Shown piece by piece: positions 22,642 through 24,051 of a stretch of DNA of 64,000 nucleotides. The notes beneath the pieces are model-generated. The model was not told where the DNA came from, did not search any database, and was given only the letters and a program-made list of their open reading frames with translations. The DNA comes from a virus (lineage: Duplodnaviria; Heunggongvirae; Uroviricota; Caudoviricetes): the IMG/VR virus record IMGVR_UViG_2541047857_000014, one strand, 5' to 3'. The number at the start of each line of letters is the position of its first letter. Position 1 is the stretch's first letter. Made by a program: the position numbers and the translations under genes.

Positions 22642-24051
22642 TTACTCATCTACTCTGATTTTTTGTTTTTTATTATTTTGAGTTAAGACATTTATGGTAA
22701 TAGATGTATACGGATGAAAGTCAGGCACTATACTTTTAACCTCTCCATTTTCAAGAAAATGATGTGCTATTGAAGGAAATAAATCAGGATCTACAGGATA
22801 TTTAGCATTAGGATTATGATACATATTTAAACCTTCTGCCCATGTTTCTGTAATATCGCCTTCTTTCACTTCAAAACTAAATGCTGCTGGATATAATGCC
22901 TCTGGGTCATGATCATGGCAGTAACCACTCCTAAATAATCTAAGGTCACTTCTTCCAAAACCAGCCAGTTTTCCCATCCGATTAAACTTCGATATAGTAC
23001 CACTATTAGAACTAAGGACGGCCGAAATATTTTCAGACTCATCCAAGAAGAAAAAGCCTGAAGGAATTTCCTTTTTCTCAAATTGATGCGATATAATTTT
23101 CTTAGTTGCTAAACTGTAACATCCATCTTCAGATTTAACATGCTCATAGCGAATACCATAAAGATACTGCCAAAGTGCACTATGGGACCAAATCATAGAG
23201 TTTGGTTCATGAAAATCAGCAATTGCGAAAATTAAAGGATTCCCCTTAACATGTTCTAGATCCCAGTATCGAGTTTTCTTTTTCAGTTTAGAATAGAGAG
23301 AACTTCCAAATTTAATCGGCATATAATTCTCTATTTTCTCTAGCAATTCTTCCTTACTTTTAGGTTCAGATAGCATTTCAGATGATTGATTAATATCATT
23401 CCCTGTTGGATTAACCGTTACAGCTTCAATGCAAATAGTATTACCATACTTACGTGCCACATAATCAGGGGCATTAAACTGCCTATCTAGCCAAAAGTGT
23501 TCCTCTCGTAAATATGCGAAAAGATATAACTCCCATAGCCGGGCATCAAAACCTGTTGTCTGAAACTGCTCTATAAAATTCCCGTCGACATCCTCAAAAT
23601 GATTCATCATTTCCTTGATTATCCCTGTTGCAGGCGACCAGTTCGCATATTTACCAAATAATGAAAAATGATGATGAAGTTTATCTGGTGTAACTATAGG
23701 TGTGAATAAATCCATTGCTTTATAAGTTTCATCACCTTGTGGAAATACTTTTACGTTTAATTTAGTATGCTTCCGCATTAATTTCTTTAGTTTTGCTCGT
23801 GCAGAATTCATTTCTGAAACACTAGTAAATAGGTCAATACATCTATATCTCCCACTTAAGTCTCTTGCTAAAACAATACCGCTATAATCTTCATCGATTT
23901 GATCCAATAATAGTGCCCCTAGCAGGAACTCTCTCGGACTACAGTACCACTCAAACTCATAGCCTAAAAGTTCAGTATTTGGCATTCTGGTCCAATCAAC
24001 AAAAGCATTAAACCTCTCTTTACTCATTTTTTTTATATCAAGAAAAGACAT
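22642..24051 (-). CDS. cargo gene between portal gene and cos: 469-aa uncharacterised protein (candidate defence gene)
   Basis: AT-rich, convergent with Q, good SD (GAGGT) before ATG; no family recognised by eye. Confidence 0.6.
   Translation of the reverse strand: MSFLDIKKMSKERFNAFVDWTRMPNTELLGYEFEWYCSPREFLLGALLLDQIDEDYSGIVLARDLSGRYRCIDLFTSVSEMNSARAKLKKLMRKHTKLNVKVFPQGDETYKAMDLFTPIVTPDKLHHHFSLFGKYANWSPATGIIKEMMNHFEDVDGNFIEQFQTTGFDARLWELYLFAYLREEHFWLDRQFNAPDYVARKYGNTICIEAVTVNPTGNDINQSSEMLSEPKSKEELLEKIENYMPIKFGSSLYSKLKKKTRYWDLEHVKGNPLIFAIADFHEPNSMIWSHSALWQYLYGIRYEHVKSEDGCYSLATKKIISHQFEKKEIPSGFFFLDESENISAVLSSNSGTISKFNRMGKLAGFGRSDLRLFRSGYCHDHDPEALYPAAFSFEVKEGDITETWAEGLNMYHNPNAKYPVDPDLFPSIAHHFLENGEVKSIVPDFHPYTSITINVLTQNNKKQKIRVDE

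Follow-up and report, generated by a model that had tools for sequence, protein, structure and literature searches.

PD-T7-1 was one of 21 systems obtained by functional selection on Escherichia coli isolates and consists of a single gene, from ECOR46 (Vassallo et al., 2022, PMC9519451). The protection that it gave was weaker for T7 than for T-even phages, and adsorption was unaffected; its label as a nuclease rests on an HHpred match to Hjc at 80% probability (PMC9519451). In 2025 the PD-T7-1 gene of the B2 uropathogenic isolate NILS69 was deleted and re-cloned, and was found to protect against Teseptimavirus and to give smaller T7 plaques (PMC12409345). A literature search returned no mechanism or biochemical data for PD-T7-1. 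The cos-proximal gpA-gpQ interval of P2-like prophages has been described as a defence hotspot (Rousset et al., 2022, PMC9122126; Vassallo et al., PMC9519451), with 18,150 loci and 1,650 gene arrangements (PMC9122126; PMC9519451). Here a 64,000 nucleotide stretch of Caudoviricetes DNA (IMG/VR virus record IMGVR_UViG_2541047857_000014, referred to as the window) was analyzed, in which this interval holds one gene of 469 codons at 22642..24051 on the minus strand, starting with ATG. This cargo gene is very probably an AT-rich moron that encodes a single-protein defence system of the PD-T7-1 family and that a P2-like (Fels-2/RE-2010-type) prophage carries next to cos, in the gpA-gpQ hotspot.

The translated cargo gene was matched by the PADLOC PD-T7-1 model (PDLC04073) with an E-value of 1.3e-196 and 651.7 bits, residues 7-457 aligning with positions 2-449 of the 452 in the profile. 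This match identifies the gene as a bona fide member of the PD-T7-1 family and makes the anti-phage role proposed in the original prediction, which was made from the DNA letters without database searches, very probable. The same prediction had treated the protein as unrecognised and the gene as a candidate for an undescribed single-gene system. The first description is overturned by the full-length match, and the second by the two validations of PD-T7-1, in 2022 (PMC9519451) and in 2025 (PMC12409345). Neither the family nor the site is new to the literature, and the usual defence annotation programs would flag the gene.

The family comprises more than 3700 homologues of about 450-500 residues. 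Neighbouring genes differ between the E. coli prophage, Burkholderia and Pseudomonas, with no conserved partner, as for a single-gene system; the Pseudomonas homologue lies within a small island of unknown genes. Pfam searches with the whole protein (E-value up to 1) and with the central domain of 20 members (E-value up to 10) gave no meaningful match, and neither did NCBIfam and PDB sequence-profile searches with the cargo protein. The sole match in PHROGs was family 8571, of unknown function. A match to gramicidin synthetase (E-value 0.07) was a short motif at chance level and was discarded. A second, partial PADLOC match was obtained to PD-T7-5 (E-value 1.4e-56, residues 113-436), and assignment to that system was rejected because the model covers only these residues and the cargo protein has an extra N-terminal ∼110 residues. 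In Burkholderia humptydooensis CP009549 a homologue of 50% identity is found within a type I restriction-modification locus (locus span L006 2078-10792), after hsdS, hsdM and an unannotated protein of ∼1300 residues and before an unannotated protein of 1090 residues.

The stop-free run at the cargo gene is 472 codons long, whereas those in shuffles of the cassette (n = 1000) averaged 79 and never exceeded 184. This is far above the expectation for such AT-rich DNA, and the 469-residue open reading frame (ORF) is therefore taken to be real. It has a GC content of 0.35 (0.26 at third codon positions) between flanks of ∼0.55, is convergent with the portal gene Q, as originally described, and is the only long ORF inside a 1.66 kb block at 22480-24143 with a GC content of 0.34. 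Beside the block, GC content is 0.53 in the bulk of Q, 0.535 in gene A and 0.555 on the cos side. A Shine-Dalgarno sequence, GAGG, is present at 24059-24062 on the minus strand, 7 nt before the ATG, in agreement with the original prediction. A RefSeq entry for a version of 461 residues (WP_251004521) begins at Met9, at window position 24027 instead of 24051; homologue alignment and the GAGG sequence favour Met1, as in the annotation of E. coli S88.

The cargo gene is located between Q and the replication gene A, adjoining cos. Q occupies 21560..22594 on the plus strand (Pfam Phage_portal, 4.4e-18; annotated in S88 as phage portal protein), with its stop codon at 22592-22594, and is preceded on the left by the P2-type terminase gene P at 19794-21560. 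To the right of cos are a DinI-like gene at 24373-24606 and gene A at 24959-27399 on the minus strand (Pfam Phage_GPA, 4e-128). A single copy of the cos core, GGCGTGGCGGGGA, is present in the window (24156-24168, minus strand), where 0.01 would be expected by chance. By comparison with P2 cosL and cosR, the P2 cohesive end corresponds to the 19 nt GGCGTGGCGGGGATACGAG, at 24150..24168 on the minus strand; this sequence is retained in vB_EcoM-813R9 and RE-2010 and has one mismatch in 4LV2017. The cos-like motif of the original prediction is thus present, one base away from the 24149-24167 given there. The distance from Q to cos is 1.55 kb, compared with 167 bp to cosL in P2, which bears out the predicted contrast of ∼1.5 kb with ∼150 bp.

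Comparison with relatives located both borders of the cassette. Four relatives align perfectly rightwards from GCGCGCGCTCGTATCCCCGCCACGCC (∼24143) and have nothing in common to its left, which places the right border of the variable block at the cos cleavage site, within ∼6 bp. A conserved cos-flanking block at 24143..24330 is common to 813R9, RE-2010 and 4LV2017, and the 24052..24143 segment on the minus strand is an AT-rich 5′ leader specific to the cargo, similarity to relatives being absent left of ∼24143. On the other side, the last ∼35 codons of Q (about 22480-22594) have a GC content of 0.26 and the identity of relatives decays from about 22480, so the left border lies inside Q. These last ∼35 codons of Q co-vary with the cargo. 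With the cassette on the Q side and ending at the cos cleavage site, every recognition element of cos would have to lie on the A side.

The closest phages over the interval have P, Q, cos, DinI and A at 89-97% identity, with the cargo replaced. At its place 813R9 carries a Hypoth_Ymh gene, 4LV2017 a retron reverse transcriptase plus effector, RE-2010 an AIPR gene, and other relatives Abi-alpha and TIR genes; position and orientation were as here in every case inspected. Otherwise collinear relatives therefore differ at this site, with similarity breaking sharply at cos and inside the tail of Q. Among 5426 complete E. coli genomes the flanks were matched in 1258, and 25 of these held the cargo gene. 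The comparison of the Q-cos interval across relatives, which had been recommended as a check, thus showed a variable cargo site, and autonomous cargo there, as foreseen, is in keeping with the other defence genes held by relatives. The original prediction had named a match to a phage structural or housekeeping protein, or presence in most relatives, as counting against it, and neither was found.

The window is identical to E. coli S88 and MS7163 over 22400-24200. In S88 the cargo gene is WP_000008839.1, with the same coordinates and length, annotated as a hypothetical protein. WP_000008839 is present in the supplementary hotspot table of Rousset et al. as 'hypothetical + hypothetical + DinI' (PMC9122126), so the locus was already catalogued. 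The gene is at least 99% conserved in at least 23 genomes, and the lineages of extraintestinal pathogenic E. coli (ExPEC) that carry it include S88, MS7163 and UPEC132. IS1 interrupts this allele in E. coli 33-6 and 58-3.

P2-like phages of Yersinia and a lambdoid phage of E. coli carry a 449-residue allele of the family, the two copies being 99% identical; the allele was also found in 201 of the 5426 E. coli genomes, including strain 042. It occupies other moron sites, a Z/fun-type site in the case of the Yersinia P2-like phage. Its ORF of 1350 nt is as long as the one whose ECOR46 coordinates Vassallo et al. list in Table S2 (PMC9519451), and on this agreement the 449-residue allele is probably the validated reference. 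Alignment places the cargo gene in a different clade from this allele. The PD-T7-1 model scored the cargo protein higher (651.7 bits) than the 449-residue alleles (521 bits). IS1 interrupts the 449-residue allele in GN4751 and LT594504.

An AlphaFold2 model of the cargo protein was generated with 47 homologues (predicted local distance difference test 88.6, predicted template modelling score 0.89). The N-terminal domain, residues 1-100 (23752..24051, minus strand), is predicted to have a four-stranded sheet and a long helix, is absent from PD-T7-5 and PHROG 8571, and contains the invariant charged residues D53, D55, R63, D64 and R70. The centre of the model, residues ∼125-300, is helical to alpha/beta and includes a restriction-endonuclease-like domain of PD-(D/E)xK fold at residues ∼165-300 (23152..23559, minus strand), with the alpha/beta core expected of that superfamily. 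The C-terminal domain, residues 301-469 (22645..23151, minus strand), is beta-rich and contains invariant KFNRxG and NPNA motifs. Fold likenesses were noted to Hjc, VRR-NUC, FAN1, HamA, Upx, CdiA-CT, TnsA and Vsr; a Foldseek search of the PDB with the full model gave no match at E ≤ 0.001. Invariant residues stand at the expected positions of the core, even in homologues of 33-36% identity: the first helix carries E174, one strand opens with P195-D196, and the strand after it carries E209. The candidate active-site codons are at 23530-23532 (E174), 23464-23466 (D196), 23425-23427 (E209) and 23287-23289 (K255), and these four residues are invariant down to 33% identity.

On the favoured reading, that of a PD-T7-1 defence protein, the cargo gene would be expressed by itself from the lysogen. 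A metal-dependent nuclease domain would then cut nucleic acid after infection; the presumed target is phage DNA or a DNA structure peculiar to the phage, for example a branched intermediate of replication or recombination. A structure-specific DNA target is plausible in view of the likeness to Hjc, VRR-NUC and FAN1, nucleases that act on junctions and flaps. The N-terminal and the C-terminal beta-rich domains may serve in recognition or regulation. Upstream of cos, inside the conserved block, a GC-rich hairpin at 24218-24238 is followed by TTTT at 24214-24217 on the minus strand and likely terminates the early/DinI transcript. This terminator-like hairpin before cos, together with the Shine-Dalgarno sequence, suggests that the cargo gene would be expressed on its own, from its own promoter. 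An inverted repeat with a 9-bp stem, AACCACCTC-TAT-GAGGTGGTT, lies at 22600..22620 between the convergent stop codons of Q and the cargo gene. It is a possible bidirectional terminator and was not called in a terminator scan because it lacks a T-run.

Several observations weigh against this reading. The protein is only 33% identical to the 449-residue allele, the one that agrees in length with the ECOR46 reference ORF. A D...(D/E)-x-K catalytic motif was not found, the canonical lysine being V211 (E209-A-V211), and position 211 is valine in 45 and threonine in two of 47 sequences. No sigma-70 consensus of at least 9/12 was found within the 95 bp that separate cos from the ATG, so the promoter-like region of the original prediction was not borne out there; candidates of ∼7/12 in the leader are weak and were seen by eye only. 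Gene A of the prophage is frameshifted and the element is decaying, which makes expression of the cargo an assumption. As to the motif, the invariant K255 on the following helix, or R171, may substitute for the canonical lysine. Replacement of this lysine from elsewhere happens in some members of the PD-(D/E)xK superfamily.

The nuclease domain could instead belong to an abortive-infection toxin that degrades the host chromosome or tRNA and so kills or arrests the cell. Matches to CdiA-CT and EndA-like proteins make such host- or tRNA-directed activity a serious alternative, which we nevertheless consider rather doubtful. No antitoxin or partner gene is conserved beside the homologues, and seven of the 11 putative DNase systems examined in the original selection gave direct immunity (PMC9519451).

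It is improbable that the endonuclease-like fold is catalytically dead and that the protein, in place of cleavage, binds or sequesters DNA or a protein of the phage. E174, D196 and E209, with K255 and R171, are invariant in samples of the family of more than 3700 members, down to 33% identity. Such a pattern is what an active metal site typically shows when its lysine has moved, and a relocated lysine is known in the PD-(D/E)xK superfamily.

Still less probable is a silent remnant: the prophage is decaying, and the gene, though its ORF is intact, would have lost expression or function. The frameshift in gene A, the lack of a consensus promoter in the 95-bp leader and the IS1 insertions in two E. 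coli genomes are consistent with decay. They are countered by 469 intact codons in DNA of 35% GC, by conservation of at least 99% in at least 23 genomes and by the retention of all family-invariant residues. A phage housekeeping role in cos function and packaging or in recombination, for example as the prophage's own junction resolvase, was suggested by the position beside cos and the portal gene and by the resemblance to the Holliday-junction resolvase Hjc, and was rejected as effectively refuted by the distribution of the gene, which is absent from P2, 813R9, RE-2010, 4LV2017 and ∼98% of the E. coli prophages that share its flanks, has a foreign composition and homologues outside phages, including one in a restriction-modification locus, and belongs to a family whose members, cloned by themselves, protect a non-lysogenic host (PMC9519451).

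The frameshift in gene A results from a 26-bp tandem duplication at 25331-25382 (CCCCTTGGACTCGTGGCAATAACTGT, twice), which is absent from 813R9 and RE-2010. The ORF is 695 residues long with the last 118 in another frame, and is annotated in S88 as a frameshifted pseudogene. Replication of the prophage is probably defective, its cargo being still intact. A second AT-rich cargo gene is present at 12076-13776 on the plus strand (GC ∼0.35, 566 residues) between the tail genes V (11359-11937) and S (13832-14290), opposed to the orientation of its neighbours. Its product matched AIPR (Pfam, 1.6e-25) and AbiU (PADLOC, 1.7e-24).

An ORF of 407 codons at 32106-33329 on the plus strand (GC ∼0.31) begins 4 bp past the integrase stop. 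Its product had no match in Pfam, NCBIfam or PADLOC and matched PHROG 7835, of unknown function, at 4.8e-180. The RE-2010 and SopEPhi records contain homologues of 38-42% identity within their first ∼1.4 kb; SPbeta yopC is another relative, as is a Cartapus copy annotated as 'putative RES protein, NAD+ binding domain'. The ORF is an uncharacterised cargo candidate, arguably more open than the gene between Q and cos. Just past the prophage, at 34070-39164, is a defence island with genes for a protein with a DpnII/MboI-type restriction endonuclease domain (34070-34858), a PD-T4-3 GIY-YIG protein (35450-36256; PADLOC 8.6e-137) and a GmrSD type IV restriction enzyme (37215-39164). PD-T4-3 is also carried by NILS69, the strain of the 2025 PD-T7-1 test. 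No att direct repeats of at least 14 bp were found between the window start and the int side, and the ogr/att end of the prophage is probably outside the window.

The locus serves as a calibration case, since a reader with nothing but the sequence correctly recognised defence cargo from position, composition and orientation. For the mechanism of PD-T7-1 the model supplies candidate residues, E174, D196, E209 and K255, and a three-domain layout. Two alleles that are 33% identical are found at different moron sites of E. coli prophages, and the range of phages affected may differ between them. Carriage in ExPEC (S88, MS7163 and UPEC132) is relevant to the choice of therapy phages.

Among described systems the cargo gene is closest to PD-T7-1 (reference RCQ85672.1, ECOR46), with which it shares the full-length hidden Markov model match, the single-gene form of ∼450-500 codons, carriage in prophages or defence islands, and a common motif set of QGDE, E...PD...EAV, K255, YW, KFNRMG and NPNA. 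It differs from the 449-residue allele by a C-terminal tail of 10 residues and by its location in hotspot #1 (Q-cos), compared with a Z/fun-type site in Yersinia. PD-T7-5 (Vassallo et al., 2022; PDLC04110) and PHROG 8571 are homologous over residues ∼110-436, a span that takes in the nuclease-like core and the greater part of the C-terminal domain. PD-T7-5 lacks the N-terminal domain of ∼110 residues and is limited to a core of ∼350 residues, and the cargo protein scores far better on PD-T7-1.

Hjc, VRR-NUC/FAN1, XisH-like proteins and HamA of Hachiman have the same alpha-beta-beta-alpha-beta core arrangement as the model, and small PD-(D/E)xK nucleases likewise have a glutamate on the first helix, a strand opening with P-D and a glutamate on the next strand. 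The nearest counterparts by location are old and tin of P2, which are also AT-rich, lie between gpA and gpQ beside cos, and are lysogen-expressed exclusion genes transcribed independently of the late operon. They are unrelated in sequence to the cargo gene, Old being an ATPase/Toprim nuclease and Tin having another target, and they lie on the A side of cos, whereas the variable cassette of the present clade is on the Q side.
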